A stretch of DNA of 32,000 bases from Nonlabens ponticola (GTDB taxonomy: Bacteria > Bacteroidota > Bacteroidia > Flavobacteriales > Flavobacteriaceae): the NCBI RefSeq assembly GCF_003966335.1, contig NZ_CP034549.1, positions 1,050,001-1,082,000 of the forward strand, written 5' to 3'. The position numbers and the translations under genes were made by a program. Positions 2-31,784 of this stretch are shown piece by piece (within the stretch, counting starts at the first letter, position 1; the number at the start of each line of letters is the position of its first letter). Below the pieces are notes generated by a model. The model had not been told where the DNA came from, did not search any database, and worked only from the letters and a program-made list of their open reading frames with translations.

Positions 2-565
2 GTGGCGATGCAGCCAGCTGGCTACAGTGTGCAGCTCAATTCTTATAAGGACAGCAGTTTACAGGGCGATCGTGCACTGGTTGAGATATATGAGAAATTG
101 GGTGTGCAAACCACCTTTAATTTGACAGGAATCGTGCTCACGTGCATGACCGATTTTGAACCGCCGCACTATCTGGAATTTGATCTCACGTCACAACCTG
201 ATCAAGCGCAAACAATCTTTGCTACTTGTTTGGGGCTTGGTATCAATTTGAAAATGAAAGGTTTGCATACTCTTAGAATCAAAGAAACAGACCGTATAAA
301 GGCAATGGATGTTGTTGGGTCACGCTTTCGCGAAAGCAAAATTCTAACAACCACCGATACCATAGAAATAACATTCTCTCCAGATTCTAGCATTACACAA
401 GAGTTCATCGTGGACACCTACCAAGATCACCGTATGGCACTAGCCTTTGCACCACTATGCTGCAAGACGACCGTGATAATTAACGATGCAGATGTGGTTA
501 CTAAAAGCTATGGCGAGTATTATAAGGATCTGGCTGCCGTAAAGGTCGATATAACAGAAATTTAA
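2..565 (+). CDS. aroA: 3-phosphoshikimate 1-carboxyvinyltransferase (EPSP synthase), C-terminal fragment; the 5' end lies outside the window
   Basis: The ORF is open to the window edge. It has the C-terminal EPSP-synthase motifs LRIKETDRI and QDHRMALAFAPL. It carries palindrome copy 1, translated SRFRESK. Confidence 0.8.
   Translation: MAMQPAGYSVQLNSYKDSSLQGDRALVEIYEKLGVQTTFNLTGIVLTCMTDFEPPHYLEFDLTSQPDQAQTIFATCLGLGINLKMKGLHTLRIKETDRIKAMDVVGSRFRESKILTTTDTIEITFSPDSSITQEFIVDTYQDHRMALAFAPLCCKTTVIINDADVVTKSYGEYYKDLAAVKVDITEI
324..337. repeat. Iterated palindrome copy 1, GCTTTCGCGAAAGC
   Basis: Exact 14-mer inside aroA, read as CGC-TTT-CGC-GAA-AGC (RFRES). Confidence 0.97.
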
Positions 566-601
566 GCAGCGATTTACTTGACAACCCCTATGTCCAGATT
601 G

Positions 602-609
602 TATATTTG
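602..609 (+). promoter_or_regulatory. Bacteroidota-type -7 promoter box (TAnnTTTG) for queA
   Basis: TATATTTG, 25 nt before the ATG. Confidence 0.45.
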
Positions 610-633
610 CAACTCAAAAATTAAACGTATTTA

Positions 634-1686
634 ATGAAATTATCACAATTCGGTTACAAGCTCCCGGAAGAGTTTATCGCAAAATATCCAGCTGAAAATA
701 GGGATGAGTCAAAGCTGATGGTACTGCACAAGTCCACTGGTAAAATCGAGCACAAAGTCTTTAAGGACGTCATCGATTATTTTGACGAGAAAGACGTTTT
801 TGTGATGAATGATACCAAGGTTTTTCCTGCCAGATTATACGGTAACAAGGAGAAGACAGGTGCGCGTATTGAGGTGTTCCTTTTACGTGAATTGAACCCT
901 ACTACTAAGCTTTGGGACGTCTTAGTCGACCCAGCTAGAAAAATACGTATAGGTAATAAACTATACTTTGGCGAGGATGAGAGTCTGGTGGCTGAGGTTA
1001 TTGACAACACAACTTCAAGAGGTAGAACTTTACGTTTTTTATATGACGGTACTTATGAGGAGTTTAGAAAAAAGCTTAAGGATCTAGGTGAGACTCCATT
1101 ACCACGTGAGCTAGAACGTGAGGTAGAAGAATCAGATACTGAAAGATACCAGACCATTTATGCAGCAAATGAAGGAGCTGTCGCAGCGCCAGTTGCTGGA
1201 TTACACTTTTCTCGTCACTTATTGAAGCGACTAGAAATCAAAGGTGTCAATGTTGCTACGGTAACTATGCACATAGGCTTAGGAACTTTTGCTCCAGTTG
1301 AGGTTGAAGATCTTTCTAAGCACAAGATGGACAGCGAGCAAGCTTTTATTACAGAGCCTACGGTCGCGATGGTCAACGAGGCGATAGACAATAAGCGCAA
1401 CATTTGTGCGGTAGGTACGACTACCATGAGATCGCTTGAAAGTGCCGTAAGTAGTGACGGTCACTTGAATACGTACGAAGGCTGGACCAATAAATTTATC
1501 TTTCCGCCGTATGATTTCTCTATAGCAAATAGCATGATTACAAACTTTCACCATCCTAAATCTACTTTGATGATGCAGGCAGCTGCGTTTGCAGGTTATG
1601 ATTTCTTGAAGGAAGCTTATGATGTAGCGATGAAAGAGGGCTATAAGTTCAGTACGTATGGCGATGCTATGTTGATTTTAGAATAA
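634..1686 (+). CDS. queA: S-adenosylmethionine:tRNA ribosyltransferase-isomerase
   Basis: 350-aa ORF with a QueA-type N-terminus ([19 protein letters not shown]) and the C-terminal [11 protein letters not shown] motif. A TAnnTTTG box lies 25 nt upstream. Confidence 0.93.
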
Positions 1687-1710
1687 TATTTTATATACAG
1701 TGATAGTTAG

Positions 1711-1740
1711 AACCCTTTATGCAATAGTATAAAGGGTTTT
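1711..1740 (+). terminator. Putative intrinsic terminator after queA
   Basis: 10-bp stem AACCCTTTAT / ATAAAGGGTT with an 8-nt loop, followed by a short T run. It lies 25 nt after the stop. Confidence 0.5.
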
Positions 1741-1784
1741 ACGATTGCTTATTGTACCTTAACGTTCCCTATCTTCCTATAATT

Positions 1785-3491
1785 ATGAAGTTTGTATCCC
1801 TAATATTTGTATTTGCTGTAATCGCAAGCCTACGCGTACAAGCACAGGTAACTAATGAGGTAACGCCACCTAGCTGGTCATTAACTGCAAAAAGTGAGGT
1901 TGCACCAATTGTTCTTCCTGCGATAGACGTGGATAAATTGTTGTTGGAAGATGAACAATCTTCAAATAATATCGCAAAGCCGTTACGTATAGGTGAGGCG
2001 ATAGAGGTGAATATTGATTTATACAATGCTGGTGCATGGACCGTTCTAGAAAATGGCGATCGCATCTGGAGACAATCCATAGTTTCTCGCGGTGCGAAGT
2101 TCATGAAGGCAACACTTGATTTATATAGCTTACCTCAAGGCGCAGAATTATTTTTATACAACGACAGTCGTACTGATAAAATAGGGCCTTATACAGCTAG
2201 AGAAAATCAAGAAAACGGCGTGCTGGGAACCTGGATCGTTGAAGGAGATCATCTATGGATTGAATATTATGAGCCTGCAGCGGTTAGTGGTTTTGGTAGG
2301 GTTTCCATTGACGCCATCACTCACGGCTATGTAGAATTGCCTAAGCAAGAAAATTTTGGTAAGCTTAATGAATCTGGTAATTGTAATGTCGATGTATTAT
2401 GTGACCCTAATGCTGGATCAACAGGTGATAAAGATTGGGATGACGCACGAGATAAGTATATTAATAGTGTAGCGCGTATCATCTATAATTTGAATGGTAG
2501 CACTTTTACCTGCACAGGTTCTATGATTGCCAATACCGGTGATGACACCACACCTTATTTCTTAACGGCAAATCACTGTCTTGGTGATGTAAACAATGGT
2601 GCAGGAAGCAGCTATGATGCTTCTGATTGGGCATTTGGTTTTCAATGGTTTACAAATACGCCCGATTGTGCGACCACGGCACCAACACAAGGACCGCAAC
2701 AACCTACTCGAGTGTTGACTGGTGCGGCACTCAAGGCAAACAATGACAATAGCGATATGGCTCTTTTTCTATTATCGCAAGAGCCAGAAGAAGATTGGAA
2801 TATTTTTTATGCCGGTTGGGACCACAGCGGTGATGTGCCACAAGAGCAATTGGGAATACATCATCCAGGATTTGACATTATGAAACTAGCGAGGAATGAT
2901 CAACCTGCTGAATCTGTTTTGCTCAACTTTAATGGAAACTCGAGAACACAAGTCTGGCAAATCGCCGATTGGGATTATGGAGTGACCGAAGGTGGCTCTT
3001 CTGGAAGTTTTATTCTCAATGAAAACGATCAAATAGTAGGTCAATTAGCAGGTGGGTTTGCGGCATGTTCAGGTACAAATGATAATAATGATGCAGACTT
3101 TTACGGTAAGTTTGATGTGAGTTGGGATTTTGGTAGTCGATCCTCTCAACGTCTTAGAGATTGGCTGGATCCAGAAGATACAGGAGTTGAGGCGCTAGAT
3201 GGTTCTTTCTTTAAGGATTTAGAGGACGAGATGCAACCACCGCCGCCGCCGCCACCAAATCCTGAATTTGACATTTTTGTATTTCCTAACCCTTCATCAG
3301 GTAGGTATTTTGTCGTGAGTGAAGAGCCTACTACCTACGAGATATTCAACCTCAATGGTCAACTTATCGTTGAAGGAAGTACCAATGATTTGAATGACGT
3401 CATCGACATCTCCTACGCGGCCAAAGGTATTTACATCGCAAGAGTAAAGAATGCTGGTAACACTATAGTTCGCAAATTAATCAAGCAGTAG
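1785..3491 (+). CDS. Secreted trypsin-fold (S1, lysyl/glutamyl-endopeptidase-like) serine protease with a T9SS C-terminal sorting domain
   Basis: The signal peptide MKFVSLIFVFAVIASLRVQAQ starts at ATG 1785; the track ORF starts at an upstream TTG at 1752. Catalytic His context is LTANHC and catalytic Ser context is GGSSGS. A PPPPPPPNP linker is followed by a C-terminal FVFPNPSSG...GIYIARV...KLIKQ tail typical of Por/T9SS sorting domains. Confidence 0.75.
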   Translation: MKFVSLIFVFAVIASLRVQAQVTNEVTPPSWSLTAKSEVAPIVLPAIDVDKLLLEDEQSSNNIAKPLRIGEAIEVNIDLYNAGAWTVLENGDRIWRQSIVSRGAKFMKATLDLYSLPQGAELFLYNDSRTDKIGPYTARENQENGVLGTWIVEGDHLWIEYYEPAAVSGFGRVSIDAITHGYVELPKQENFGKLNESGNCNVDVLCDPNAGSTGDKDWDDARDKYINSVARIIYNLNGSTFTCTGSMIANTGDDTTPYFLTANHCLGDVNNGAGSSYDASDWAFGFQWFTNTPDCATTAPTQGPQQPTRVLTGAALKANNDNSDMALFLLSQEPEEDWNIFYAGWDHSGDVPQEQLGIHHPGFDIMKLARNDQPAESVLLNFNGNSRTQVWQIADWDYGVTEGGSSGSFILNENDQIVGQLAGGFAACSGTNDNNDADFYGKFDVSWDFGSRSSQRLRDWLDPEDTGVEALDGSFFKDLEDEMQPPPPPPPNPEFDIFVFPNPSSGRYFVVSEEPTTYEIFNLNGQLIVEGSTNDLNDVIDISYAAKGIYIARVKNAGNTIVRKLIKQ

Positions 3492-3514
3492 TACGCTGCT
3501 TATTCCTTCAAGGA

Positions 3515-4586: not shown

Positions 4587-4604
4587 ACGCTTTCGCGAAA
4601 GCGT
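4587..4604. repeat. Iterated palindrome copy 2, extended to the 18-nt ACGCTTTCGCGAAAGCGT
   Basis: Exact palindrome in intergenic DNA, starting 17 nt after the rlmN stop. Confidence 0.97.
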
Positions 4605-5680: not shown

Positions 5681-5694
5681 GCTTTCGCGAAAGC
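5681..5694. repeat. Iterated palindrome copy 3, GCTTTCGCGAAAGC
   Basis: Exact 14-mer in intergenic DNA, 20 nt after the polyprenyl synthase stop. Confidence 0.97.
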
Positions 5695-9962: not shown

Positions 9963-9986
9963 ATTACGCTTTCGCGAAAGCGTAAT
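9963..9986. repeat. Iterated palindrome copy 4, extended to the 24-nt ATTACGCTTTCGCGAAAGCGTAAT
   Basis: Exact 24-nt palindrome in intergenic DNA, 41 nt after the OM beta-barrel gene stop. Confidence 0.97.
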
Positions 9987-12881: not shown

Positions 12882-12882
12882 C

Positions 12883-14286
12883 ATGAAAGCCAGGCTGCAA
12901 AATGGCTTCGGCATTTTATTGATCCTTAGCTTTTTAGGGTACTCTTTCTTGAGCACGCTTTCGCGAAAGCAGTACTATCCAAGTCTTCTTACTTATATAG
13001 GTTTATTTGCGCTATTTCTAGCATTGTGCTGGATGGCCAAAACTGCTACCGAAAAAAGATGGGAACTATTTTCAGCCTGGTTAGGAAACTTTTTTAAGGC
13101 CAAATCATCCTTTGTGGCATGGCTGCTGGCTGGTGTTGTTTTGCGGTTAGTGCTCTTGTGGGTGACGCCATGGTTGTCGCAAGATTTTTTCAGGTTCATC
13201 TGGGATGGACACCTATCACTTAACGGCTTCAATCCCTATTTGTATTTACCCGACGATTTGATCGTATCAGGCGCAGATTTTATCCCAAATGCCGAGTTCC
13301 TGCACGCGTCCATGGGATCACTATCCAGCGGTCATTTTACTAACTATCCACCATTGAATCAATTTTTCTTTGCAGCAGCAGCCTATCTAGGCGGCGATAG
13401 TTTGCTGCATACGGTGATATGGATGCGCGTATTTATCATTTTGGCAGACGTCGTTACGTTTATCTACGGAATCAAACTCTTGCGATTATTGGGTAAACCA
13501 GACTGGTTGATCTTATTGTACTATTTGAATCCGTTTGTGATCGTAGAATTGACAGGAAACCTGCATTGGGAAGGCGTTATGGCTTGCTTCATGCTGATAG
13601 GTGTTTATCATTTTATATGCTATGATAAGTGGCGCAGCGGACTGTTTTTAGGTTTTGGCGTTTTGGTAAAATTGTTACCGGTGTTGGTTTTTCCTTTAGT
13701 GGTGCGGGCACGGAAATTCAAATGGATCGTACTGTTCTACATCACCGCTGCGGTAACGATCATCGCTGGATTTGCACCACTTGTTTCAGGTGAATTGATT
13801 GAAAAATACGCAGCATCGATTGGTTTGTGGTTTGGGACATTTGAGTTCAATGCGAGTATTTATTACGTCATTAGAGCGATTGGGTATGAGGTAACTGGTT
13901 ATAATATTATTGGTACGGTCGGTAAGATCTTGCCGCTAATTACTATTGCAGTAATAATCTTGTTATCGCTATTGCGTCAAAACAAGTATCCCGAAGTCCT
14001 GTTGACCAGTATTCTACTTGCTTTCACGACATATTTGTTGCTCTCGACCACTGTTCATCCATGGTATTTGACGATTCCGTTACTGTTTTCTTTGTTTACC
14101 CGGTATCGATTTATGGTGGTGTGGAGTTGTCTGGTTTTTGTGAGTTATTCTGCTTATGCAAACGCAGATTATAGTGAGAACTTCTGGTGGATTGGTCTGG
14201 AATATGGTGTGGTCCTTTTTATATGTATTTTAGAGCTGACAGGAAAGAGTATTTTTTCTGCCAGAACAAACCAACTAAACCGCTGA
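12883..14286 (+). CDS. Polytopic membrane protein, putative GT-C-fold (DUF2029/PMT-like) polyprenyl-phosphate-sugar-dependent glycosyltransferase
   Basis: 467 aa and highly hydrophobic, with 10 or more predicted helices. The first-loop motif SQDFFRFIWDGHLSLNGFNPY resembles the acidic loop of GT-C mannosyltransferases. There is a 1-nt gap to the upstream gene. It contains palindrome copy 5. Confidence 0.5.
   Translation: MKARLQNGFGILLILSFLGYSFLSTLSRKQYYPSLLTYIGLFALFLALCWMAKTATEKRWELFSAWLGNFFKAKSSFVAWLLAGVVLRLVLLWVTPWLSQDFFRFIWDGHLSLNGFNPYLYLPDDLIVSGADFIPNAEFLHASMGSLSSGHFTNYPPLNQFFFAAAAYLGGDSLLHTVIWMRVFIILADVVTFIYGIKLLRLLGKPDWLILLYYLNPFVIVELTGNLHWEGVMACFMLIGVYHFICYDKWRSGLFLGFGVLVKLLPVLVFPLVVRARKFKWIVLFYITAAVTIIAGFAPLVSGELIEKYAASIGLWFGTFEFNASIYYVIRAIGYEVTGYNIIGTVGKILPLITIAVIILLSLLRQNKYPEVLLTSILLAFTTYLLLSTTVHPWYLTIPLLFSLFTRYRFMVVWSCLVFVSYSAYANADYSENFWWIGLEYGVVLFICILELTGKSIFSARTNQLNR
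12957..12970. repeat. Iterated palindrome copy 5, GCTTTCGCGAAAGC
   Basis: Exact 14-mer inside the GT-C-like gene, read as CTT-TCG-CGA-AAG (LSRK). Confidence 0.97.
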
Positions 14287-17697: not shown

Positions 17698-17711
17698 GCT
17701 TTCGCGAAAGC
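17698..17711. repeat. Iterated palindrome copy 6, GCTTTCGCGAAAGC
   Basis: Exact 14-mer in intergenic DNA, about 110 nt after the DHS-like stop and about 30 nt upstream of the lipoprotein start. Confidence 0.97.
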
Positions 17712-18803: not shown

Positions 18804-18836
18804 TTTTGCAAACGTGTTTATATTTTATATGAGAGG

Positions 18837-19775
18837 TTAATCCTCGTCAATATTTTTCATCTTTTTCAAGCCTTCTTTCGCGAAAGCGTTATCTGCATCA
18901 TAGCCATCTTCACCTTCTAGCGCGATGTCCTTAAATTTATAGCTGAGCATTTTGTAGTACAGTTTGGCCGCTAGAAAATCTGACGATTTCTCGTTAGGAT
19001 TGGGGCACAATTCAACAATGTCAAATCCTACCACATTTTTCTCCTCAAAAACGGATTTCAAGAAATCCAGCGTCTCATACCAGAACAAGCCGCCTGGCTC
19101 TGGTGTGCCAGTTGACGGCAAGATGGATGGATCAAACGCATCTAGATCGATGGTGATGAATACATTTTCAGTCAAGGCCTCGACTACCTTTTCTTGCCAG
19201 TAGTCATCCTGAGCCATATCGTGAGCATAGAATGTTTTTTCATCTTCATTGACGCCTAGCTCAATGCTATCCATGGAACGTATGCCTACCTGAACAAGAT
19301 TGGTGTTCTGGCTAGCTTCATAAACGGCACAAGCATGATTGCAGGTGCTGCCATCATATTCTTTGCGCAGGTCTGCATGTGCGTCAAGTTGCAAAACGCT
19401 CAAATTTTCAAACATCTCGCTAAAAGCTCTAATGCTCCCTATGGAAATGGAATGCTCGCCACCAAATAATGTTACAAACTTGTTGCGTTTGATGTATTTT
19501 TTGGTGGTTTGATGGACCGCATCGACCATGGCTTCTGGTGACGAATTCTCAGTTACAGCATCGGCAAGAAAAACGCCGTGTCTATAAACCTCGCTGTCGG
19601 TTTCAATATCATACAATTCCATATTGCGACTTGCATTCAGAAATGCTTCTGGACCTTTGTCAGCACCTTTTTGCCAGGTGCTGGTACCATCATAAGGTAC
19701 CGGAATTAAAACAATGGATGCGCTATCAAGTGCGGCAAATTCATCCTCAATGCCTGCATAATTGTTATTGCTCAT
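18837..19775 (-). CDS. speB: Agmatinase (ureohydrolase family)
   Basis: Mn-binding ureohydrolase motifs FGGEHSIS, LDAHADLR and TIDLDAFDPS. The acidic C-terminal tail carries palindrome copy 7 (NAFAKE). Confidence 0.9.
   Translation of the reverse strand: MSNNNYAGIEDEFAALDSASIVLIPVPYDGTSTWQKGADKGPEAFLNASRNMELYDIETDSEVYRHGVFLADAVTENSSPEAMVDAVHQTTKKYIKRNKFVTLFGGEHSISIGSIRAFSEMFENLSVLQLDAHADLRKEYDGSTCNHACAVYEASQNTNLVQVGIRSMDSIELGVNEDEKTFYAHDMAQDDYWQEKVVEALTENVFITIDLDAFDPSILPSTGTPEPGGLFWYETLDFLKSVFEEKNVVGFDIVELCPNPNEKSSDFLAAKLYYKMLSYKFKDIALEGEDGYDADNAFAKEGLKKMKNIDED
18875..18887. repeat. Iterated palindrome copy 7, 12-nt core CTTTCGCGAAAG plus C
   Basis: Exact 12-nt core; the left flank is T rather than G. 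It lies inside the speB tail, read on the minus strand as GCT-TTC-GCG-AAA (AFAK). Confidence 0.95.
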
Positions 19776-19825
19776 GGTAATAAATTATAAATCAGAGTAT
19801 TAAATATAATAAATGAGATTCAGGA

Positions 19826-21220
19826 TTATTGATATCCTAGGATTTCCAGCATTTGCTCAGAGCTTTGTTGCTCTTTAAAAACACGCGTGGTGATCGCTCC
19901 ATCGTCATCGCGGTCGATCAAGACATGTTTAGGTGCTGGTATCAAACAGTGCTGCAAGCCACCATAACCACCTATGGTTTCTTGATAGGCACCTGTGTTG
20001 AAAAAGCCCACATATAATGGCTTGTCCTTATGATATTTAGGTAAATAGATGGCGTTGATGTTCTGCTCGCTATTGTAATAATCATCGCTATCGCAGGTCA
20101 AACCGCCTAAAAGCACACGCTCGTATTCATCATTCCATCTGTTCAAGGGTAGCATGATAAAACGCTTTGAAATCGCCCAGGAATCGGGTAATGTGGTAAT
20201 AAATGAGCTATTGATCATGGACCATTTCTCACGGTCGTTTTGCTGTTTTTGATACAGGATTTTGTAGATCGCACCACCAGATTCTCCTACGGTAAAAGAT
20301 CCAAATTCCGTAAATAGATGTGGTACATCGACGCCAGCTTCATCGCAGACTTGCTTGATCTGGCTCACGATTTCTTCTACCATGTATGCATAGTCAAACT
20401 CAAATGCAAGGCTATTCTTGATAGGGAAACCACCACCAATATTAAGACTGTCTAGAGTAGGGCAAATCTTTTTCAATTGAATGTATACCTTCAAACACTT
20501 ATGCAGCTCATTCCAGTAATAAGCATTGTCGCGTATTCCTGTGTTGATAAAAAAGTGTAACATCTTGAGATTAACCTGATTATTTGGCTCAATCTGATTC
20601 TTGAAAAAGGTCAAAATGTTTTTATAACCTATGCCTAGACGACTGGTGTAGAATTCAAACTTGGGCTCTTCCTCGCTAGCGATGCGTATACCTACATTGA
20701 AATTGCTATCAGTTGCTTCAGTAAGTAGCGATAACTCTTCATAATTATCAATTACAGGAATACAGTTTTTCTGGCCGCTATCAATTAGGCTCGCAATGTT
20801 TTGAATGTAAAGATCACGTTTAAAGCCATTACAAATGACAAAGGTTTCATCGTTGATCTTTCCTTCTTTTTTGAGGCTTTGCACAATATTGATGTCAAAA
20901 GCACTGCTGGTCTCAATATGGATATCATTCTTGAGCGCCGTGTCTAGCACATGCTTGAAATGGGAACTTTTGGTGCAATAGCAGTAGTTGTAGGTGGCTT
21001 TGTAGTCCGCTTTCGCGAAAGCGGAATCAAACCAACCTTTTGCACGTTGAATATTGTCAGAAATTTTAGGCAAATAACTGAATTTCAATGGTGTGCCATA
21101 TTCCTCGACCAATTTCATGAGGTCTATGCCATGAAATTGTAGGTGCTTGTTTTGTAATTCAAATTCTTCTGTAGGAAAGTGATAGGTCTGATCTATGAGA
21201 TCTATGTATTTAGTATTCAA
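19826..21220 (-). CDS. speA: Arginine decarboxylase, type-III PLP (alanine-racemase-fold) enzyme, Bacteroidota type
   Basis: 464 aa with the PLP-Lys context YCYCTKSS and the glycine-rich NIGGGFP loop. TTG start (MNTKYIDL), with a TACATTTG box 46 nt upstream. It contains palindrome copy 8. Confidence 0.85.
   Translation of the reverse strand: MNTKYIDLIDQTYHFPTEEFELQNKHLQFHGIDLMKLVEEYGTPLKFSYLPKISDNIQRAKGWFDSAFAKADYKATYNYCYCTKSSHFKHVLDTALKNDIHIETSSAFDINIVQSLKKEGKINDETFVICNGFKRDLYIQNIASLIDSGQKNCIPVIDNYEELSLLTEATDSNFNVGIRIASEEEPKFEFYTSRLGIGYKNILTFFKNQIEPNNQVNLKMLHFFINTGIRDNAYYWNELHKCLKVYIQLKKICPTLDSLNIGGGFPIKNSLAFEFDYAYMVEEIVSQIKQVCDEAGVDVPHLFTEFGSFTVGESGGAIYKILYQKQQNDREKWSMINSSFITTLPDSWAISKRFIMLPLNRWNDEYERVLLGGLTCDSDDYYNSEQNINAIYLPKYHKDKPLYVGFFNTGAYQETIGGYGGLQHCLIPAPKHVLIDRDDDGAITTRVFKEQQSSEQMLEILGYQ
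21007..21024. repeat. Iterated palindrome copy 8, extended to the 18-nt CCGCTTTCGCGAAAGCGG
   Basis: Exact 18-nt palindrome inside speA, read as AFAK (SAFAKA). Confidence 0.97.
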
Positions 21221-21305: not shown

Positions 21306-22283
21306 CTATATCATCTTAAGATTGATGATCTCTTGTGGCGTGAGGTATCGGTAATTGCCGCGAGGTAGATCTTTTTTGGTCAGCCCGCCTATGACCACAC
21401 GATCCAAAACCTTGACTTCATAACCTACAGCATCAAATAGTCGTTGTACCAGATTGTCCTTGCCGCTGTGTACCTCAAGTCCTATCTCATTATTTTTACC
21501 GCCATCCACATAGCTTATTTCTTCTACCTTGAATACCTCGCCGTCAATGTTGATACCATTGCGTATTTTCATCAAGTCCTCATGCTTGAAGCTGCGATCC
21601 AGCGCGACGTGATAGATTTTGCGCAGTTTTTGATTAGGGTTATTGAGCTTATTGGATAAATTGATATCGCTGGTAAAAACCATTAAACCAACGCTTTGTC
21701 TACCGAGACGTCCTATATAATGTAATTTTGACTCACTGGCATTTGCCATAAGGTCATGTACGGTCTTACTGGCTTTCTCGCCAGATCTAGGCGTGATAAA
21801 ACCTTTGGGTTTGTTGAGTAGTAAATATTCTTTCTTGCGAGGCTCGATAGATCTGCCATCAAACTTTACTTCATCGCTAGGCTGGACTTTGTAACCCATC
21901 TCAACCACAGGCTTGCCGTTTACGGTCACGCTTCCAGCTGCGATGTAAATATCAGCATCGCGACGGCTGCAAATTCCCGAGTTTGCTATGTATTTATTCA
22001 GGCGTATTCCTTTGGCATCACTTTTTGAGCTAGGCTTACTTTCTTTTTTCTTACGGTCTATGTATTCCTTCTTCGTTACTGGATTACCAGATCTTGAGGT
22101 GCCGATTACTTGATTCTTGCCGCCACGAGTATTTTTGGTGGGCGCAGCCTTGCGTCCAGAATTTGATCCTTTATGATCCTGAGATCCTGCATTGCGTCTG
22201 TTGCCGCCTTTTCCTGCAGCACCTTTGCTACCACCTTGACGTCCACTGGATTTTCCTCTGCTGCCTTCGTTACCTCTACTCAT
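21306..22283 (-). CDS. RsuA/RluB-family pseudouridine synthase homologue with an N-terminal Arg/Gly/Lys/Ser-rich tail; the catalytic Asp is replaced by Gly
   Basis: S4 domain (IRLNKYIANSGICSRRDADIYIAAGSVTVNGK) plus a catalytic domain. The universal GRLD motif reads GRLG here (GGT codon at 21702-21704). The first 90 aa or so are low-complexity RGG/K-rich. Confidence 0.8.
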   Translation of the reverse strand: MSRGNEGSRGKSSGRQGGSKGAAGKGGNRRNAGSQDHKGSNSGRKAAPTKNTRGGKNQVIGTSRSGNPVTKKEYIDRKKKESKPSSKSDAKGIRLNKYIANSGICSRRDADIYIAAGSVTVNGKPVVEMGYKVQPSDEVKFDGRSIEPRKKEYLLLNKPKGFITPRSGEKASKTVHDLMANASESKLHYIGRLGRQSVGLMVFTSDINLSNKLNNPNQKLRKIYHVALDRSFKHEDLMKIRNGINIDGEVFKVEEISYVDGGKNNEIGLEVHSGKDNLVQRLFDAVGYEVKVLDRVVIGGLTKKDLPRGNYRYLTPQEIINLKMI

Positions 22284-24016: not shown

Positions 24017-24967
24017 CTAATCCTCAAACCTCACCGTACTCTGTCGCTCGCGATTCACGTGCAACTGGGTCACGTCAGGTCTTGAATAGTGTCCAACAGC
24101 GTCAAAATTCTGTCGTTCTTCATAGATCCTATTGAAATCCAGGGTTGCCGTTATGATTTCTTCTTTGCCTATTTGCGGTTCAATGATCCACTCGCCATCG
24201 GGTCCAGCGATACAACTACCGCCATTGGCTAGCACATCAGGACAATTTTGTAGAATTTCTTCCAGATGCAAAGTGTCTGATGGCAAATCGGATCGAGTCA
24301 TCATACTGCTTACTGACAGTACAAACGTGCGACCTTCACGAGCGATGAAACGTGTGATATCTCTCGTATTATGATCACTACCAGGCCAGCACGCCACGTG
24401 CAGATTGGTGCCTTGAGCATACATCGCAGCTCGTGGCAACGGCATCCAGTTTTCCCAGCAATTGAGTCCGCTCATGGTAAAGTCTTTCAACTTGTGCGTT
24501 ACCAGACCATGACCGTCACCTGGCGCCCAAGTTAATCGCTCGTCATAGGTAGGTTGCAATTTTCTGTGGCTGCTCTTGATTTCACCGTTCTGGTTGATGT
24601 ACACCATGCTCGCATAGATGCTGTGACCACCTCGATCTTGTGGTCGTTCGATCAGTCCTAAGTAGATGGCTATTTTGTTAGCTTTCGCGAAAGCACAAAC
24701 AGCATCCAGATCTCCTGCTTCTAGATCGACCGAGTTTAATACATACTGACGGTGCAACTCTTTGACCACGGTTTTATTCCAAGCAGCGCCATCAGTCAAG
24801 GCTAGCCAAAATGGATAACCAGGTAACAATGCCTCACCAAAAACCACGAGTTCCGCGCCCTTATTTTTTGCTTGTTGCAGGCTGTCCAAAATCTTTTCTA
24901 GAGTTGCTTTCTTGTTAAGCCATACAGGCGAAATCTGGGCTAGGGCAACGTTGATCTGTGAGTTCAT
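24017..24967 (-). CDS. Nitrilase (nitrilase-superfamily branch 1)
   Basis: Glu-Lys-Cys triad contexts VFGEALLPGYP, HRKLQPT and LNCWENWMP. Its start shares one nucleotide with the upstream UbiA stop (TAATG). It contains palindrome copy 9. Confidence 0.85.
   Translation of the reverse strand: MNSQINVALAQISPVWLNKKATLEKILDSLQQAKNKGAELVVFGEALLPGYPFWLALTDGAAWNKTVVKELHRQYVLNSVDLEAGDLDAVCAFAKANKIAIYLGLIERPQDRGGHSIYASMVYINQNGEIKSSHRKLQPTYDERLTWAPGDGHGLVTHKLKDFTMSGLNCWENWMPLPRAAMYAQGTNLHVACWPGSDHNTRDITRFIAREGRTFVLSVSSMMTRSDLPSDTLHLEEILQNCPDVLANGGSCIAGPDGEWIIEPQIGKEEIITATLDFNRIYEERQNFDAVGHYSRPDVTQLHVNRERQSTVRFED
24681..24694. repeat. Iterated palindrome copy 9, GCTTTCGCGAAAGC
   Basis: Exact 14-mer inside the nitrilase gene, read as AFAK (CAFAKA). 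Confidence 0.97.
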
Positions 24968-25908
24968 TACAGGTTGTTTAGTCGTTCTAAAATGGCTGGT
25001 AGGTCGATCAAAAGAATTGAGAAGACTCCAGCGACGATGATGATTTTTAATATAAAATGGATGAGTAGATACTCACGTTTGCGCCTTGATGACCACAGTA
25101 ACGGCAGGCATACCAGCAGCGCACCGGTGATAAAAGTAAAATAGTAGCTCATGTAGCCAGTCTCAAAAAATAGAATTAGGACGGCGACTGGCACCATGGT
25201 TACCAATGTTATCAAGGTGTAGAACTGTTTGGCTTTGCGCTCGCCAAGAACAACAGGTACTGTACGATAATCTTGCGCTAGATCGCCTCTCAGGTTTTCT
25301 AGATCCTTGATAAGCTCGCGCATGCTGAGAATGAGAAACAAGAATAATCCGTGAACCAATATGACTGGATAGAAGTTGCGGTAGTACATGAACAGAACAA
25401 AGAATGGCGTGATGGAAAGCGCCGCTGCCATCAAATTACCTAAGAATAGCACTTTACTGAGCTTGTGAGAATAAAACCACATCGCAAAAATGTAGCCCAT
25501 GTAAAACAGGCCAGCACGCCAGGAAACGATAAATCCTAAGGTTACCGAAATGGCATTAAGCGAGAAATAAACAGACCATAATGTGGAACGACTTACCTGA
25601 TTTTCCAACAAAGTCTTTTGCGGTCTATTGATTAAGTCTTTCTCCTGATCGTAAAAGTTATTGATGATATATCCTGCAGATATCGCCGCAGCAGTAGCCA
25701 CGATAATGAGCCAAAGGTTGTAATCTGCAACAACTTCCATTACTGGTCTATCGGTGGCCATAATGAATACGGCGGCTAGCAATTGTGCTATGGCAATGAG
25801 CGCAATGTTGTACAATCGCACAGAAGAAAACAGGCTGAGAACCTTTAAAGAAAGCTCTTTAAATCCAGAAGATGGTCGTGATGTAGCAGCCTCGTGATTC
25901 ATGTTCAA
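24967..25908 (-). CDS. UbiA-family membrane prenyltransferase (homologues are often annotated as DGGGP-synthase-like)
   Basis: About 8-9 TM helices and the first Asp-rich motif NNFYDQEKDLINRP. The start is either TTG 25908 or ATG 25902. Confidence 0.8.
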   Translation of the reverse strand: MNMNHEAATSRPSSGFKELSLKVLSLFSSVRLYNIALIAIAQLLAAVFIMATDRPVMEVVADYNLWLIIVATAAAISAGYIINNFYDQEKDLINRPQKTLLENQVSRSTLWSVYFSLNAISVTLGFIVSWRAGLFYMGYIFAMWFYSHKLSKVLFLGNLMAAALSITPFFVLFMYYRNFYPVILVHGLFLFLILSMRELIKDLENLRGDLAQDYRTVPVVLGERKAKQFYTLITLVTMVPVAVLILFFETGYMSYYFTFITGALLVCLPLLWSSRRKREYLLIHFILKIIIVAGVFSILLIDLPAILERLNNL

Positions 25909-26026: not shown

Positions 26027-26965
26027 CTAAAAATTATAAACTACTTCCAGCTTATAATCCTTTAGAGCTTTTTCTGCTTTCTCTAGATCTTCGGTAAAAC
26101 CTAGGATGTAGCCACCACCACCAGAGCCGCAAAGCTTCAGGTAGTAATCACCTGTGTCCAGTCCTTTTTTCCACAGTGCGTGGAATTGCGTAGGTATCAT
26201 AGGTTTGAAATTGTCAAGAACAGTACGAGAAAGATGTTTTACATTACCAAATAATCCTTTGACATCACCGCTCAAGAAGTCATCTACACACAAGTCTGTG
26301 TACTTCACAAACTGATCTTTCAACATTTTACGGAATCCTTCTTTCTTCATGTTTTCCATGAAAATATTGACCATAGGTGCTGTTTCACCTGTCATTCCAG
26401 AATCCAACAGAAACACAGCGCCTTTACCAGTCGCCAATTGCGATGGGATGCCAGCTGGTTCAATATTGTCTTTACTATTTATAAGGATAGGCAAGCTCAA
26501 GTAACTGTTCAATGGATCCAATCCAGAGCTCTTGCCGTGGAAGAAACTTTCAATCTTGCCAAAAATCTCTTTAAGTGTCAATAGTCGCTCCCGAGTCAAA
26601 TTTTCAAGAACGGTGATTTTTTCTAGGGCGTATTTATCATAGATAGAGGCTACCAGCGCACCACTACTACCTACACCATAACCTTGTGGTATGCTGCTGT
26701 CAAAGTACATTCCTGCGTCAATATCTGCGCGCATGGATTGTACATTAAATGCTGGAAAATCAGGATCGCTGGCAGCTAGTTCTTCAATATGACCAGCCAG
26801 TCTTGCCAGGCTGCGATTAGAAGCTGCAGCGGTCTCGTCGAGCTCATCAGTAATCTTGAGAGCGCCGTTGTAAAAGTTATAAGGGATGGAAAGTCCTTTT
26901 GAGTCCTTAATTATCCCATACTCGCCGAACAACAAGATCTTTGAGTAAAAAAGTGGTCCTTTCAT
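26027..26965 (-). CDS. GHMP-family kinase of the mevalonate pathway (mevalonate kinase or phosphomevalonate kinase)
   Basis: GHMP ATP motif PQGYGVGSSGALVASI and N-terminal KILLFGEYGII. I prefer ATG 26965 (MKGPLFYSK), because the track start at 26998 would overlap the upstream gene by 20 nt. A rho-independent terminator follows. Confidence 0.8.
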   Translation of the reverse strand: MKGPLFYSKILLFGEYGIIKDSKGLSIPYNFYNGALKITDELDETAAASNRSLARLAGHIEELAASDPDFPAFNVQSMRADIDAGMYFDSSIPQGYGVGSSGALVASIYDKYALEKITVLENLTRERLLTLKEIFGKIESFFHGKSSGLDPLNSYLSLPILINSKDNIEPAGIPSQLATGKGAVFLLDSGMTGETAPMVNIFMENMKKEGFRKMLKDQFVKYTDLCVDDFLSGDVKGLFGNVKHLSRTVLDNFKPMIPTQFHALWKKGLDTGDYYLKLCGSGGGGYILGFTEDLEKAEKALKDYKLEVVYNF

Positions 26966-26978
26966 AGTAAAAATTCCT

Positions 26979-28037
26979 CTAGAGACGCGAAGCGCCATGA
27001 CCTAGTTGGTCACAAATATAATGTTCCTTCTGACAATAGGACGCTAATTTACTCTTAATCAATTCATCAACCTGATCTGCATACTCATCTGGATATAGCA
27101 TGTGTACGTTGGCACCTGCATCCAGTGTAAAACAAACAGGAACGCCGGTCTCCTTTCGGTAGGCCCAAATTTCCTCGATGATTGACAAGGTGTTAGGTTT
27201 CATCAGTATAAAGTAAGGATGAGAGGTCATCATCATGCTGTGCAAAGTCAAAGCTTCACTTTCCGTGATTTTAATAAAACTGTCATAGTCACCATCTTTC
27301 AAGGCTTTCTTAATACTGGTCAAGTTGTCGTGGGCTTGATGGAATCTCGCTTTCGCGAAAGCGTGCCCGTTCATCAGCTCATGACCTACCGTTGAGCTTA
27401 CCGTCTTCTCGCCCTTGTCCACTAACAAGATGGTATCACGGTAGTTCTCAAAATTCTCGTGTAGCAAATTCTCAACGTTCACCCCATAAAGATTGCTGCT
27501 GTCTGGCGTTTGCTCATGCTCGCCCCAAACCACCAACTGACCATCCAGACTGCGGCACGCACTACCAGAGCCTAACCTTGCTAGAAAGCTGGCTTTGGCT
27601 TTATCATGTTTTCCTCCTGTAAGCTGCTGCTCAAAGTCCATCAAGCAACTTGCCATCGCCGCCATGCTGCTCGCACTGCTGGCAATACCACTACTGTGTG
27701 GGAACGTATTTAATGTATCAATCTCAAACTTATAATTCTTGATCCATGGGCAATAAGGCGTAATGCGCTCAAAAAATTCGGCGATTTTAGGTTCAAAACT
27801 GGGCTTAGGCTCACCTTCATAAGAAATATGGAAACCATGCTGATCTGCTAGAGTTGCTTTGATACTCGTTTCTGTATGACAATTGTTAAGCGTGAAACTA
27901 ATCGACGGATTTGCTGGCAATTGCATACCATGCTTGCCCCAATATTTGACCAGCGCAATATTGGATGGCGCCTGCCATTTGGTCTTTAGTTTGTCTGCTA
28001 GTTGGATATCAGCTGTTAGGTGAAATTGTTGAGCCAC
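26979..28037 (-). CDS. mvaD: Diphosphomevalonate decarboxylase
   Basis: N-terminal APSNIALVKYWGK and GHMP motif FPHSSGIASSASS. The GTG start is 18 nt downstream of a TATCTTTG box. It contains palindrome copy 10. Confidence 0.9.
   Translation of the reverse strand: MAQQFHLTADIQLADKLKTKWQAPSNIALVKYWGKHGMQLPANPSISFTLNNCHTETSIKATLADQHGFHISYEGEPKPSFEPKIAEFFERITPYCPWIKNYKFEIDTLNTFPHSSGIASSASSMAAMASCLMDFEQQLTGGKHDKAKASFLARLGSGSACRSLDGQLVVWGEHEQTPDSSNLYGVNVENLLHENFENYRDTILLVDKGEKTVSSTVGHELMNGHAFAKARFHQAHDNLTSIKKALKDGDYDSFIKITESEALTLHSMMMTSHPYFILMKPNTLSIIEEIWAYRKETGVPVCFTLDAGANVHMLYPDEYADQVDELIKSKLASYCQKEHYICDQLGHGASRL
27348..27363. repeat. Iterated palindrome copy 10, 16-nt CGCTTTCGCGAAAGCG
   Basis: Exact 16-mer inside the diphosphomevalonate decarboxylase gene, read as AFAK (HAFAKA). 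Confidence 0.97.
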
Positions 28038-28062: not shown

Positions 28063-28112
28063 AAGGATTGCCGTATGCTGATATAAAGTTTTTGCGTGAG
28101 CACAAAGCATGC

Positions 28113-29366: not shown

Positions 29367-29431
29367 GAATTGATGCTTACTTAAGATTGGTTTTCATAAG
29401 GTTTGACTCTTATGAGCTTATAACGTTACAC

Positions 29432-29439
29432 CAAATATA
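29432..29439 (-). promoter_or_regulatory. -7 box (TAnnTTTG) for the MacB/FtsX permease gene
   Basis: The minus strand reads TATATTTG, 66 nt before the ATG. Confidence 0.35.
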
Positions 29440-29486
29440 GATTTTTTGAATTCGCGTTTGTGTGTTGGCATATTTTTTGGAAAACA

Positions 29487-29494
29487 TACCTTTG
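29487..29494 (+). promoter_or_regulatory. -7 box (TAnnTTTG) for the lipoprotein gene
   Basis: TACCTTTG, 15 nt before ATG 29509. Confidence 0.45.
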
Positions 29495-29508
29495 AAAAAA
29501 GCTACAAA

Positions 29509-30078
29509 ATGAAAAGATTTAAAATATTAGGACTTCTATTACTAACAATAGGAGCAGTATCATGTGAGTCAGATGACGATTTGCCAGAAGTTCAAGAAAT
29601 TGATCCTATCGTGATCACTTCAGATTCTAAGTTCAATGCTGGTGATGATGAATATGAAATTACAGGTGGTGTCGTGTCAAATGTTGCAACAAATGAAGGT
29701 GACCGATTTACACAACTCATATTTTTAGGCGATGGTCTGGAGTTCAATAGATTTGGGATTCAAGGTCGCGGTCCATTGGCACAGTTAGTGATTTATAATG
29801 ATATCAACGTGAGCAACATTGCCGGTACTTATGAATTAAGTTCTACTGCGGCAACTGGAACTGCGGTGATCGTGTATTCTGAGGATTTCAATGTAAACGG
29901 TAGTCAAGATGCAGACGGTCGTGCTACATCAGGAACTGTAATCATTGAACGAGTTGGTGAAAACCAGTACATCGTTAATGTTGAGGATGGAGAGACTGAA
30001 GGTGAGGACGCAGATGATGACGATGACAATGAAAGTTTTGATCTATTCTTTGATGGTGAAGTTTACGTGGTGAACTAA
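29509..30078 (+). CDS. Hypothetical lipoprotein with an acidic C-terminal region
   Basis: Lipobox MKRFKILGLLLLTIGAVSCES from ATG 29509. A TACCTTTG box at 29487-29494 lies inside the longer track ORF, so the 29446 start is rejected. A strong terminator follows. Confidence 0.6.
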   Translation: MKRFKILGLLLLTIGAVSCESDDDLPEVQEIDPIVITSDSKFNAGDDEYEITGGVVSNVATNEGDRFTQLIFLGDGLEFNRFGIQGRGPLAQLVIYNDINVSNIAGTYELSSTAATGTAVIVYSEDFNVNGSQDADGRATSGTVIIERVGENQYIVNVEDGETEGEDADDDDDNESFDLFFDGEVYVVN

Positions 30079-30100
30079 TCTATCTTCTTTAAGACTTATA

Positions 30101-30132
30101 AAAAATCCCGATCACTAGATCGGGATTTTTTT
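30101..30132 (+). terminator. Rho-independent terminator after the lipoprotein gene
   Basis: AAAAATCCCGATC-acta-GATCGGGATTTTT followed by a T run. It lies 23 nt after the stop. Confidence 0.8.
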
Positions 30133-30236
30133 ATGTTCAAACATGGTGTAAAAGATCATTTATAAGGTAGGTAGTTGTGCAAGGATAACGTTGCACATGA
30201 GTTATTTTTAAATCTTTAAAAATCTACCCGATATCC

Positions 30237-31784
30237 ATGAGCAATATCAAAGCAAAATCCGCATTAATTTCAGTATTTCACAAAGATGGTCTAGAGCCTA
30301 TTGTTAAGAAAATGAATGATTTAGGAATCACTATTTACTCTACTGGTGGTACTGAAAAGTTTATCACAGATCTAGGAATTCCCGTAACTCCTGTTGAAGA
30401 CGTGACCTCTTATCCATCCATTTTAGGCGGCCGAGTGAAGACATTGCACCCTAAAGTTTTTGGCGGTATTCTTAATCGTCGCGATCATGATGGAGACAAA
30501 GAACAGCTAACGGAATATGATATACCACAAATTGATATCGTCATCGTTGATTTGTATCCATTTGAAGATACCGTTGCGAGCGGTGCTAGTGAGCAAGATA
30601 TTATTGAGAAAATTGACATAGGTGGTATTTCGCTCATAAGAGCAGCCGCCAAAAATTTTAAGGACACACTCTGCGTAGCTACCATGCAGGACTATGGCAA
30701 ATTGCTGGATGTGCTAGAAAAAGGTTCTGGATCAACAACGCTGGATCAGCGCAAGGAATTTGCAACCACTGCCTTCAATGTGAGCTCCCATTATGACAGC
30801 GCGATTTATGAATACTACGCTGGTGACGCATTGGACAAATCTCTCAAGATAAGCGAGACCCATGTCATGCCACTGCGCTATGGTGAGAATCCGCATCAGA
30901 AAGGCTGGTTCTACGGTGATTTTGATCAGATGTTTATCAAGCATCATGGTAAAGCACTTTCTTATAACAACCTGCTAGATGTTGATGCTGCAGTAAATCT
31001 CATGAGCGAGTTTGTAAATGAGGCGCCAACTTTCGCCATATTTAAGCACAACAATGCTTGCGGCATAGCTCAACGTGAAACTATTGAACAGGCCTACGTA
31101 GATGCTTTGGCTGGTGATCCGGTGTCTGCTTTTGGCGGGATTTTGATAGCTAATACGGCTATAGATGCTGCGACTGCTAGCAAGATTCATGAGTTATTTT
31201 GCGAGGTTGTCATTGCGCCATCCTTCAACCCAGATGCATTGGAGATTTTAAAGGGCAAGAAAAATAGAATTATGCTGGAGCTTGTTGATGGTGCGCTTTC
31301 GCGAAAGCGTAACAACCCAACACCAGAGGTGCGATCATCGCTTAACGGCTATCTAGTTCAAGATCCTAACTTAAAAACAGACACCGTTGCAGATTTATCT
31401 ACCGCTACTGACTTAGAGCCGACTGCTGAGCAAGTAGAAGATTTATTATTTGCTTCTAAAATTTGTAAGCATACTAAATCAAATACTATCGTGCTGGTCA
31501 AGGATAAGCAATTGTGCGCCAGTGGTACTGGACAAACTTCTAGGGTTGATGCCTTGAATCAAGCGATTCATAAGGCAGAATCTTTTAAGTTTGATTTGCA
31601 AGGTGCTGTCATGGCAAGTGATGCATTTTTCCCATTTCCAGACTGTGTAGAGATAGCTGATAATGCAGGAATAAAAGCCGTAATCCAGCCAGGTGGATCT
31701 ATTAAAGATCAACTTTCTATTGATTATTGTAATAAAAACGGTCTAGCGATGGTTTTTACAGGTACAAGACACTTTAAACACTAG
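30237..31784 (+). CDS. purH: Bifunctional AICAR transformylase / IMP cyclohydrolase
   Basis: N-terminal MGS-like IMPCH domain (ALISVFHKDGL, STGGT) and a C-terminal AICARFT domain ending GTRHFKH. 515 aa. It contains palindrome copy 11. Confidence 0.95.
   Translation: MSNIKAKSALISVFHKDGLEPIVKKMNDLGITIYSTGGTEKFITDLGIPVTPVEDVTSYPSILGGRVKTLHPKVFGGILNRRDHDGDKEQLTEYDIPQIDIVIVDLYPFEDTVASGASEQDIIEKIDIGGISLIRAAAKNFKDTLCVATMQDYGKLLDVLEKGSGSTTLDQRKEFATTAFNVSSHYDSAIYEYYAGDALDKSLKISETHVMPLRYGENPHQKGWFYGDFDQMFIKHHGKALSYNNLLDVDAAVNLMSEFVNEAPTFAIFKHNNACGIAQRETIEQAYVDALAGDPVSAFGGILIANTAIDAATASKIHELFCEVVIAPSFNPDALEILKGKKNRIMLELVDGALSRKRNNPTPEVRSSLNGYLVQDPNLKTDTVADLSTATDLEPTAEQVEDLLFASKICKHTKSNTIVLVKDKQLCASGTGQTSRVDALNQAIHKAESFKFDLQGAVMASDAFFPFPDCVEIADNAGIKAVIQPGGSIKDQLSIDYCNKNGLAMVFTGTRHFKH
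31294..31309. repeat. Iterated palindrome copy 11, 16-nt CGCTTTCGCGAAAGCG
   Basis: Exact 16-mer inside purH, read as LSRK (ALSRKR). Confidence 0.97.

Follow-up and report, generated by a model that had tools for sequence, protein, structure and literature searches.

The window analysed here is a 32,000-nt stretch of the genome of Nonlabens ponticola (Bacteroidota; Flavobacteriaceae; NCBI RefSeq assembly GCF_003966335.1, contig NZ_CP034549.1, positions 1,050,001 to 1,082,000 of the forward strand), along which a short perfect palindrome, the 12-mer CTTTCGCGAAAG, is dispersed. Eleven exact copies start at 325, 4590, 5682, 9969, 12958, 17699, 18875, 21010, 24682, 27350 and 31296, against an expectation of 0.00 (none was produced by 100 dinucleotide-preserving shuffles). 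All but one extend to the 14-mer GCTTTCGCGAAAGC (10/11), for which the shuffle expectation is likewise nil; the sole exception, at 18874, carries a T at the outer base. Five of the 11 (4590, 9969, 21010, 27350 and 31296) reach the 16-mer CGCTTTCGCGAAAGCG (CGC...GCG), and the longest perfect palindromes measure 18 nt (4587-4604), 20 nt (21006-21025) and 24 nt (9963-9986). An initial annotation of this DNA had reported 11 exact 12-mers at these starts, ten of them reaching the 14-mer and five the 16-mer, and had excluded chance as their source; all coordinates and both counts were borne out, and the shuffles likewise exclude chance. It had also correctly delimited the extended copies at 4587-4604 and 9963-9986, while the copy that it gave as 18 nt (21007-21024) is really 20 nt long. 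The 14-mer GCTTTCGCGAAAGC forms the core of a genomic signature element that is clade-specific, occurring in Nonlabens and also in Dokdonia.

All 11 TTCGCGAA octamers in the window fall within copies of the 12-mer. The ten other TCGCGA hexamers in the window lack the arms of the palindrome in every case, as the initial annotation had it. Apart from the exact copies, the window contains no one-mismatch copy of the 12-mer core, and the only two-mismatch copy, at 23559, is probably due to chance. No sequence outside the palindrome is common to different window copies. The initial annotation had seen no decayed copies in the window; in relatives, rare decayed copies are found at orthologous sites.

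Open reading frames (ORFs) of the window were assigned by Pfam profile matches. Seven of the 11 copies lie within Pfam-confirmed genes (aroA, GT87, agmatinase, speA, CN_hydrolase, MVD and purH) and four are intergenic. The coding copies are read in three frames, as RFRES (aroA), LSRK (GT87/MptA and purH) or AFAK(A) (agmatinase, speA, CN_hydrolase and MVD). The 14-nt palindrome at 324..337 is located in the C-terminal part of aroA (Pfam EPSP_synthase), where it encodes R-F-R-E-S; N. agnitus, N. marinus and N. tegetincola carry the exact word at this site. At 12957..12970, the gene for a membrane glycosyltransferase of the GT87/MptA family contains, in its N-terminal part, a 14-nt palindrome read L-S-R-K; the site is exact in N. 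agnitus, has one mismatch in N. marinus and reads CTTGCGCGAAAA in N. ulvanivorans and BBFL7, and N. tegetincola has an exact copy at an equal 75-nt offset from the gene start, outside the aligned segments. The 12-nt core at 18874..18887 (13 of 14 bases, with the sole outer mismatch) lies in the C-terminal tail of agmatinase and is read A-F-A-K-E. N. ponticola is alone in having this copy, the position reading GCTTTTACCAAA (AFTK) in other Nonlabens. The arginine decarboxylase gene (speA) contains the 20-nt palindrome at 21006..21025, read A-F-A-K-A, which is exact in all five Nonlabens compared and is also present in a metagenomic locus (L248); outgroups encode AIAKH or AFAKH with other codons. 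The same A-F-A-K-A reading applies to the 14-nt palindrome at 24681..24694 in a CN_hydrolase (nitrilase-family) gene and to the 16-nt palindrome at 27348..27363 in the diphosphomevalonate decarboxylase (MVD) gene. The former is exact in one N. ulvanivorans strain, BBFL7 and N. tegetincola, with a C>T change in a second N. ulvanivorans strain, and the latter is exact in N. ulvanivorans and BBFL7. Finally, purH (AICARFT/IMPCHase) holds a 16-nt palindrome at 31294..31309, read L-S-R-K.

Of the intergenic copies, the 18-nt palindrome at 4587..4604 lies 16 nt past the stop codon of rlmN (Pfam RlmN), and counterparts lie 14 nt past the rlmN stop in N. agnitus and N. marinus. The 14-nt palindrome at 5681..5694 is found 19 nt past the stop of a polyprenyl synthetase gene, upstream of der, and N. 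agnitus, N. marinus and N. tegetincola match it exactly where their DNA aligns. The longest copy, the 24-nt palindrome at 9963..9986, lies 40 nt past the stop of an OMP_b-brl_3 outer-membrane protein gene; in N. agnitus, N. marinus and N. ulvanivorans the orthologous gene is followed by a copy 9-20 nt past its stop, and BBFL7 has CTTTCGAGAAAG there. The fourth, a 14-nt palindrome at 17698..17711, is situated between two minus-strand genes; a deoxyhypusine-synthase-like gene ends 108 nt before it, and the next start codon follows 32 nt downstream. In other Nonlabens, the stop of the deoxyhypusine-synthase-like gene is followed after 14-28 nt by a copy, which may not be strictly orthologous to the one at 17698.

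The word is not a peculiarity of this window. In a scan of one genome per species for the 14-mer, the matches listed included at least 33 Dokdonia, at least 24 Nonlabens and at least 28 uncultured Flavobacteriaceae stretches, often with 2-3 copies per 8 kb, and the matches elsewhere among those listed were single copies, the chance level for a collection of such size. Densities were also taken from loci picked by protein (speA, der and Dokdonia gcvP queries), independently of the word. Per 21.4 kb, N. ulvanivorans has four copies, BBFL7 five and N. dokdonensis six; per 21.3 kb, N. agnitus has seven, N. marinus four and N. tegetincola five. These six Nonlabens genomes sum to 31 copies in 128 kb, or ~1 per 4 kb (a second N. 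ulvanivorans strain, with five copies per 21.4 kb, is excluded from the total), and the gcvP-picked locus of a Dokdonia MED134-type contig has seven in 16.6 kb. In chromosomal DNA of the two genera the word occurs about once per 2.5-5 kb. At ~1 per 4 kb, roughly 700-1000 copies are predicted in the 2.87-Mb genome, in keeping with the earlier extrapolation to about a thousand should the density be general. Moreover, 706 kb of clade DNA contains 162 perfect 14-mers against 0.0008 expected under an order-3 Markov model, most of these loci having been picked for containing a copy.

The initial annotation had proposed repeating the count in sister species and genera, and this count separates word-rich Nonlabens and Dokdonia loci from neighbouring genera without the word. 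Syntenic loci of Leeuwenhoekiella, Winogradskyella and Patiriisocius marinus contain no copies. Similarly, only two copies were counted in 80 metagenomic loci (1.0 Mb) with synteny around speA and 74-84% protein identity, and 78 of these loci (987 kb) hold none. One of the two belongs to L248, a Nonlabens-like metagenomic contig with its copy at the speA site. The other, at 9786 in L249 (CEQG01153880.1, GC 0.44), is in the lone carrier among the 80 that is not Nonlabens-like; it is placed 215 nt upstream of a speA with 79% identity and could either mark a third, sparsely populated lineage or be due to chance. The range of the word is limited to Nonlabens, Dokdonia and part of the uncultured Flavobacteriaceae, so that it is not a general Bacteroidota trait. 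By similarity ranking, which is not a phylogeny, Nonlabens and Dokdonia do not look like each other's closest relatives, and the distribution looks disjoint, since other genera rank nearer. Specifically, Winogradskyella, Leeuwenhoekiella, Lacinutrix and Mesonia precede any Dokdonia for Nonlabens SpeA and Der, with no Dokdonia orthologue among the best 120 matches to Nonlabens speA or der, and Patiriisocius, Rasiella, Aureisphaera and Altibacter precede any Nonlabens for Dokdonia GcvP. Among the compared loci, Dokdonia and Nonlabens gave five weak tblastx overlaps with no common motif site.

Individual sites persist across species. Window sites were exact in 16 of 22 cases in alignable DNA of other Nonlabens species (71-73% nucleotide identity), compared with ~2% of random 14-mers in the same alignments, and in none of four in outgroups. 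In Dokdonia, two of three sites are common to two species that are 77% identical. Perfect copies stay unchanged across the Nonlabens radiation, synonymous positions included, and the intergenic copies past the rlmN, polyprenyl synthetase and outer-membrane protein genes recur at equal places in relatives. An assembly or adapter artefact, which the initial annotation had named as grounds for rejecting the element, is excluded because the word occupies orthologous, in-frame positions in independent assemblies of at least eight species. The 706 kb of clade DNA contains 16 one-mismatch, 14 two-mismatch and 22 three-mismatch copies next to the 162 perfect ones, and the ~10:1 ratio of perfect to one-mismatch copies is inflated because ~85 of the 162 are those for which loci were chosen. 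Decayed copies include CTTTTGCGAAAG in one N. ulvanivorans strain, CTTTCGAGAAAG in BBFL7 and CTTCCGCGAAAG in N. marinus. The commonest single decay is C>T at the first CpG (3/16, plus the N. ulvanivorans strain polymorphism).

Codon alignments show how copies arise: by base substitution at near-cognate sites, with amino-acid replacement and without an indel. In MVD, AYASR, AYAAS or AYAEQ in N. dokdonensis and outgroups became AFAKA (GCT TTC GCG AAA GCG) in three Nonlabens through eight base changes. In speA, AFAKH or AIAKH became AFAKA (H to A), and in Dokdonia gcvP a subclade has (S)AFAKA in place of (A)VFAKA (V to A; local alignment). Among 164 pooled copies, 106 (65%) are coding, as AFAKA (62), LSRK (23) or RFRES (21), and 35% are intergenic, with all three frames in use; together with the seven of 11 window copies in Pfam-confirmed genes, this agrees with the earlier claim that the element is tolerated inside ORFs. 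The use of three frames and the existence of non-coding copies place the constraint on the DNA and not on the peptide, which rules out a peptide motif. Intergenic DNA makes up ~12.5% of the total, so that intergenic copies are enriched 2.8-fold, mostly 4-30 nt past stop codons. Where the nearest upstream feature of an intergenic copy is a gene end, 20 of 35 copies lie within 30 nt of its stop codon.

The anatomy of the element was derived from 159-187 pooled copies from Nonlabens, Dokdonia and related uncultured genomes. Most came from loci picked for containing the word, which inflates the ratio of perfect to mismatched copies and leaves flank and frame analyses unaffected. Positions -2/+2 are C/G in 82-89% of these copies, and -4 and -3 favour T and A/C, giving the consensus T(A/C)CG-CTTTCGCGAAAG-CG(T/G)A, a 16-20-bp palindrome (in short, TACG-CTTTCGCGAAAG-CGTA) that is identical in Nonlabens and Dokdonia. 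Beyond it lie strongly polar flanks, each ~20 nt long. C makes up 7.5% of the 5ʹ flank, compared with 18.5% at random positions and at other TCGCGA sites, and this flank is enriched in G and T (TGTG, GTGG, TTGT and GTTG are ~3-fold over-represented), and the 3ʹ flank is its mirror image (Mann-Whitney p = 2e-62). The skew is equally present in coding (n = 107) and intergenic (n = 38) copies. In both, the 5ʹ flank shows T maxima at 3-nt intervals (-4/-5, -8, -11 and -14), which may be a phased contact pattern or residual codon structure. The flanks contain no second conserved word, only generic G/T-rich k-mers being enriched. The recognition unit is long, at least 14-16 bp: the other TCGCGA hexamers of the window have no arms, and such sites across the clade loci have no skewed flanks.

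An extended hairpin or cruciform is not a feature of individual copies. Pairing of mirror positions beyond ±3 nt equals that of a cross-copy control, and real copies fold no better than chimeras of left and right flanks (p = 0.46). At a few orthologous motif-less sites in relatives the flank composition is already similar, which suggests that the word takes hold where the context already fits. These same sites, a small sample, disfavour the flank skew as a mutational footprint without rejecting it outright.

The lytic Nonlabens phages P12024S and P12024L (L330 and L331; JQ823122 and JQ823123; ~35.7 kb each) contain no copy at up to two mismatches. At host density, the probability of such absence is ~2.5e-4. 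Each of these phages encodes one DNA methyltransferase, and neither contains a TCGCGA hexamer (0 vs 2.5 expected in P12024S), an absence that is not significant. Avoidance of TCGCGA through restriction was considered and rejected, as the hexamer is not avoided in the host and its absence from the phages lacks significance. Some IMG/VR viral contigs, on the other hand, have the word at host-like density. Among them, L215 carries copies at 192, 6706 and 11186 (three in 12 kb), one of them within an HNH gene; this prophage-like contig has portal, head protease and major head genes (PHROGs) besides the HNH gene. A second prophage-like contig, L179, carries copies at 4211, 7852 and 10956.

Two N. 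ulvanivorans strains (L121 and L122) that are 98.9% identical differ by nine dense mismatch clusters in 21 kb, and two of five motif sites adjoin such clusters (L121 7907-8026 and 20748-20771; permutation P ~0.01, post hoc). At site 7998, the patch-bearing L122 has a perfect copy and L121 has CTTTTGCGAAAG (C>T), with BBFL7 flanks resembling those of L121. Inspection by eye found no consistent link between motif copies and synteny breakpoints. In N. dokdonensis (L124), a copy at 7455 lies in the divergent intergenic junction where, by comparison with N. ponticola, the MK-MVD pair is inverted relative to an adjacent FtsX-family permease gene.

Several neighbouring genes of the window merit description. 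A conserved polyamine cluster occupies 17820-21220 on the minus strand, in the order speA, agmatinase and the deoxyhypusine-synthase-like gene; a GNAT/CN_hydrolase fusion (15718-17253) lies downstream of it, with a small ORF between. The mevalonate-pathway genes MK and MVD are at 26027-28037, and a UbiA prenyltransferase gene is at 24967-25908. The product of an RluB-type pseudouridine synthase gene (21306-22283) is extended at its N terminus by ~90 aa in which Gly, Lys, Arg and Ser abound, and a protease gene at 1752-3491, which has a type IX secretion tail, encodes a PPPPPPPNP linker ahead of its Por_Secre_tail domain. The spacer upstream of purH (29971-30141) gave weak Rfam matches to the enterobacterial sRNAs STnc180 and MicC, well under gathering thresholds and almost certainly spurious. 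No methyltransferase gene was found among the Pfam-annotated genes of the window.

By its behaviour the element is grouped with the highly iterated palindrome HIP1 of cyanobacteria and with DNA-uptake sequences, the only systems previously known to us to behave in this manner; by sequence, length, host and flank architecture it belongs to neither. Like HIP1 (GCGATCGC), it is a perfect CG-containing palindrome, hyper-abundant over Markov expectation and dispersed, found within and between ORFs in all frames and spread by substitution. Likewise, its sites are conserved above background between genomes (HIP1: PMC5861425; here 16/22 vs ~2%), and its consensus can reach past the core (HIP1: PMC4390886; here T(A/C)CG/CG(T/G)A). 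The two differ in that CGCTTTCGCGAAAGCG is unrelated to GCGATCGC or to any one- or two-base derivative of it, is 14-16 bp long rather than 8, is roughly 3-10 times less dense and is found in two genera of Flavobacteriaceae, whereas HIP1 is found in most of its phylum, the cyanobacteria. One-off variants are rare for the word but common and conserved for HIP1. We know of no report of polar G/T-rich flanks for HIP1. The HIP1 core is a target of orphan DNA methyltransferases, and HIP1 spacing is quasi-periodic along the chromosome (10-90 kb). HIP1 sites are kept by selection (PMC5861425). HIP1 also raises transformation efficiency and has been described as uptake- or Chi-like (bioRxiv 10.1101/2024.09.10.611283; 10.64898/2026.06.24.733823), and a function in uptake or recombination is now suspected for it (10.1101/2024.09.10.611283).

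Comparable population behaviour marks the uptake signal sequences (USS) of Pasteurellaceae and the DNA uptake sequences (DUS) of Neisseriaceae, words of 10-16 bp with hundreds to thousands of copies, whose population behaviour is consistent with a molecular drive. Like USS and DUS, the word sits in genes as tolerable peptides, is enriched past genes, is common to related genera, has more perfect than one-mismatch copies and has an extended flanking consensus. Unlike them, it is less dense and self-palindromic without a T-tract; the asymmetric USS and DUS need to be paired in inverted orientation to form a terminator. The recombination signal Chi, which occurs about once per 4.5 kb in E. coli, has a similar density and also lies inside genes. 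The G/T-rich context of the word is of the kind preferred by RecA (PMC3763553), a further likeness to Chi, and its absence from lytic phage would fit a mark of self DNA. Chi is nevertheless an asymmetric word of 5-8 nt on one strand, recognised by RecBCD or AddAB, with a strong replication-orientation bias, whereas the 16-bp word, being palindromic, can have no orientation.

The favoured explanation, to which we assign a probability of roughly 40%, is that the word is a HIP1- or USS-like clade-specific recognition tag for DNA uptake, homologous recombination or both, which would have accumulated by recombination-linked drive plus selection. Under this reading, the element would act as double-stranded DNA, as the recognition site of a sequence-specific and probably dimeric factor in both genera. 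Fragments bearing the word would be preferentially taken up or recombined, and the word would consequently spread and be repaired by recombination, as with USS and DUS and as now proposed for HIP1; selection may contribute to its accumulation. Intergenic copies would end up just past stop codons, presumably because they do least harm there. Uptake or recombination is favoured because the population behaviour of the word matches that of uptake sequences and HIP1, because methylated HIP1 is reported to raise transformation, because the lytic phages lack the word and because two of five sites adjoin mismatch patches typical of short recombination imports, an association noticed post hoc. The flanks argue in the same direction, since G/T-rich sequence of the kind that RecA prefers (PMC3763553) lies on the strands whose 3ʹ ends face the dyad; these are the strands that would survive if a break at the site were resected or if Chi-type processing ran up to it. 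Furthermore, competence that prefers own DNA exists in Flavobacteriales, in Riemerella (PMC7965970).

Several points count against this explanation. No receptor, methyltransferase or binding protein was identified, and competence has its precedent in Riemerella rather than in Nonlabens or Dokdonia. The uptake sequences known so far are asymmetric words of 9-12 nt present about once per kb; here, a palindrome is present about once per 3-5 kb. Conservation of sites is equally expected if the copies are selected binding sites that serve another purpose, for example nucleoid organisation. The meaning given to the flank polarity is speculative, with the RecA comparison being an analogy, and the mismatch-patch association comes from one strain pair and was noticed after the fact. 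Additionally, the prophage-like contigs with the word show only that resident DNA acquires copies.

The element might instead consist of sites for a dimeric helix-turn-helix protein that organises the chromosome or associates with the nucleoid (of the ParB/Noc, SlmA or MatP type, or a HIP1 nucleoid factor), with ordinary purifying selection preserving every copy because the protein must decorate the whole chromosome. Homodimers classically bind perfect palindromes such as this one of 16 bp, and a total footprint of ~55 bp would suit a DNA-wrapping protein. Individual sites are conserved, and presence on the chromosome but not in lytic phage fits a chromosome-specific mark. As a perfect palindrome of 14-16 bp tolerated inside genes, with TTTC...GAAA arms, the word resembles parS (TGTTTCACGTGAAACA) and the Noc site (ATTTCCCGGGAAAT), although its TTTC-GAAA spacing, and hence its centre, is 2 bp shorter than in either. 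Xu et al. favour a nucleoid role for HIP1 (PMC5861425). We nonetheless regard this alternative as rather unlikely. The ~700-1000 predicted sites exceed the 4 to ~70 of known systems, copy number being 10-100 times higher than for parS and Noc sites, strand-polar flanks are unexpected for a plain duplex-binding dimer, and no candidate protein has been identified. Less probable again is a mutational ratchet of methylation and repair after Elhai's model for HIP1, in which an orphan methyltransferase acts at TCGCGA or CGCG and biased short-patch or mismatch repair turns near-matches into the full word, so that function at each site is unnecessary. The core does contain CpG-rich restriction-type sites (TCGCGA, the NruI site, and CGCG), decay is commonest as C>T at the first CpG, a correlation exists between CGATCG methyltransferases and the abundance of HIP1 (PMC4390886), and a mobile methyltransferase gene could explain the disjoint distribution. 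Yet the specificity of 14-16 bp plus flanks goes far past the recognition sites of methyltransferases; since the ten other TCGCGA hexamers of the window are armless and such sites lack flank skew clade-wide, simple methyltransferase-site bias does not account for the word. Continual regeneration would also leave many intermediates, whereas one- and two-mismatch copies are rare; same-site conservation across species is not predicted; lytic phages replicating in the host have neither copy nor near-copy; and TCGCGA is not avoided in the host.

That the enrichment of intergenic copies past stop codons (2.8-fold, with 20/35 within 30 nt downstream) reflects an RNA or transcription element, such as a terminator, 3ʹ-end stabiliser or pause signal, with coding copies incidental, is very improbable. 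Intergenic copies do have a 20-nt palindromic consensus, and stable folds are predicted for some copies (z-scores of -3.9 and -4.2), but folding is no better than that of chimeras, 65% of copies are intragenic in three frames and on either strand, and the E-value scan of the whole window against Rfam found no family at motif sites. An intrinsic terminator in particular is rejected, because the 3ʹ flank is A-rich and G-poor without a T-tract, the reverse of the expected arrangement, and most copies are intragenic; at most, the intergenic subset would have a secondary use of this kind. Spread by transposition as a miniature mobile element is scarcely credible. The initial annotation had considered the word closer to HIP1 than to repeated extragenic palindromes (REP), bacterial interspersed mosaic elements (BIME) or miniature inverted-repeat transposable elements (MITE), a view supported by gain without indels, unshared flanks, three frames and conservation of sites across the genus. 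Like these elements, and like those mobilised as REP/RAYT pairs, the word is short, palindromic, dispersed and often found just downstream of genes. REP and BIME are imperfect palindromes of 20-40 bp, and MITE have terminal inverted repeats and a target-site duplication. Such elements are strictly extragenic insertions with length polymorphism, whereas the word replaces bases in frame in conserved genes and is mostly intragenic. With 106 of 164 pooled copies (7/11 in the window) inside ORFs, the strictly extragenic REP/BIME class is rejected, as is MITE insertion, since codon alignments reveal base replacement with no length change at gain sites and no target-site duplication. Copies also have no common flank sequence, and sites are stable across species.

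The initial annotation had presented the word as undescribed in Bacteroidota, and the papers searched agree: neither the 12-mer nor its 10-mer core was found in any relevant one among them, and searches on HIP, uptake sequences, palindromes, Dokdonia, Nonlabens and Bacteroidetes turned up no prior description. The genome papers of Nonlabens dokdonensis and Dokdonia donghaensis do not mention it. To our knowledge, 30 years have brought no explanation of HIP1, and only two families of Proteobacteria are known to have uptake sequences. The element adds an independent, longer and sharper case of the HIP1 type in cultivable, sequenced marine bacteria (Dokdonia MED134 and Nonlabens), where the contrast in gene content between motif-rich and motif-free sister genera could reveal the responsible factor. 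The polar flanks and the contrast between lytic phages and prophage-like contigs are a new clue towards recombination or uptake. It is also shown directly that pressure at the DNA level can override protein sequence in essential genes. In practical terms, the word is a near-diagnostic k-mer for binning Nonlabens and Dokdonia DNA, and should the tag enhance uptake or recombination, an effect that methylated HIP1 has in Synechococcus, constructs that carry it could ease flavobacterial engineering. It is possible, if doubtful, that the word is the signal of a horizontally mobile uptake or recombination specificity system, a palindromic self-DNA tag whose G/T-rich polar flanks would be loading zones for recombination proteins. 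If so, it would be the first uptake-sequence or Chi-like signal outside Proteobacteria and cyanobacteria. Because an identical 16-mer is found in two genera that do not rank as closest relatives, the specificity determinant would then have moved between lineages and rewritten about a thousand sites per genome.

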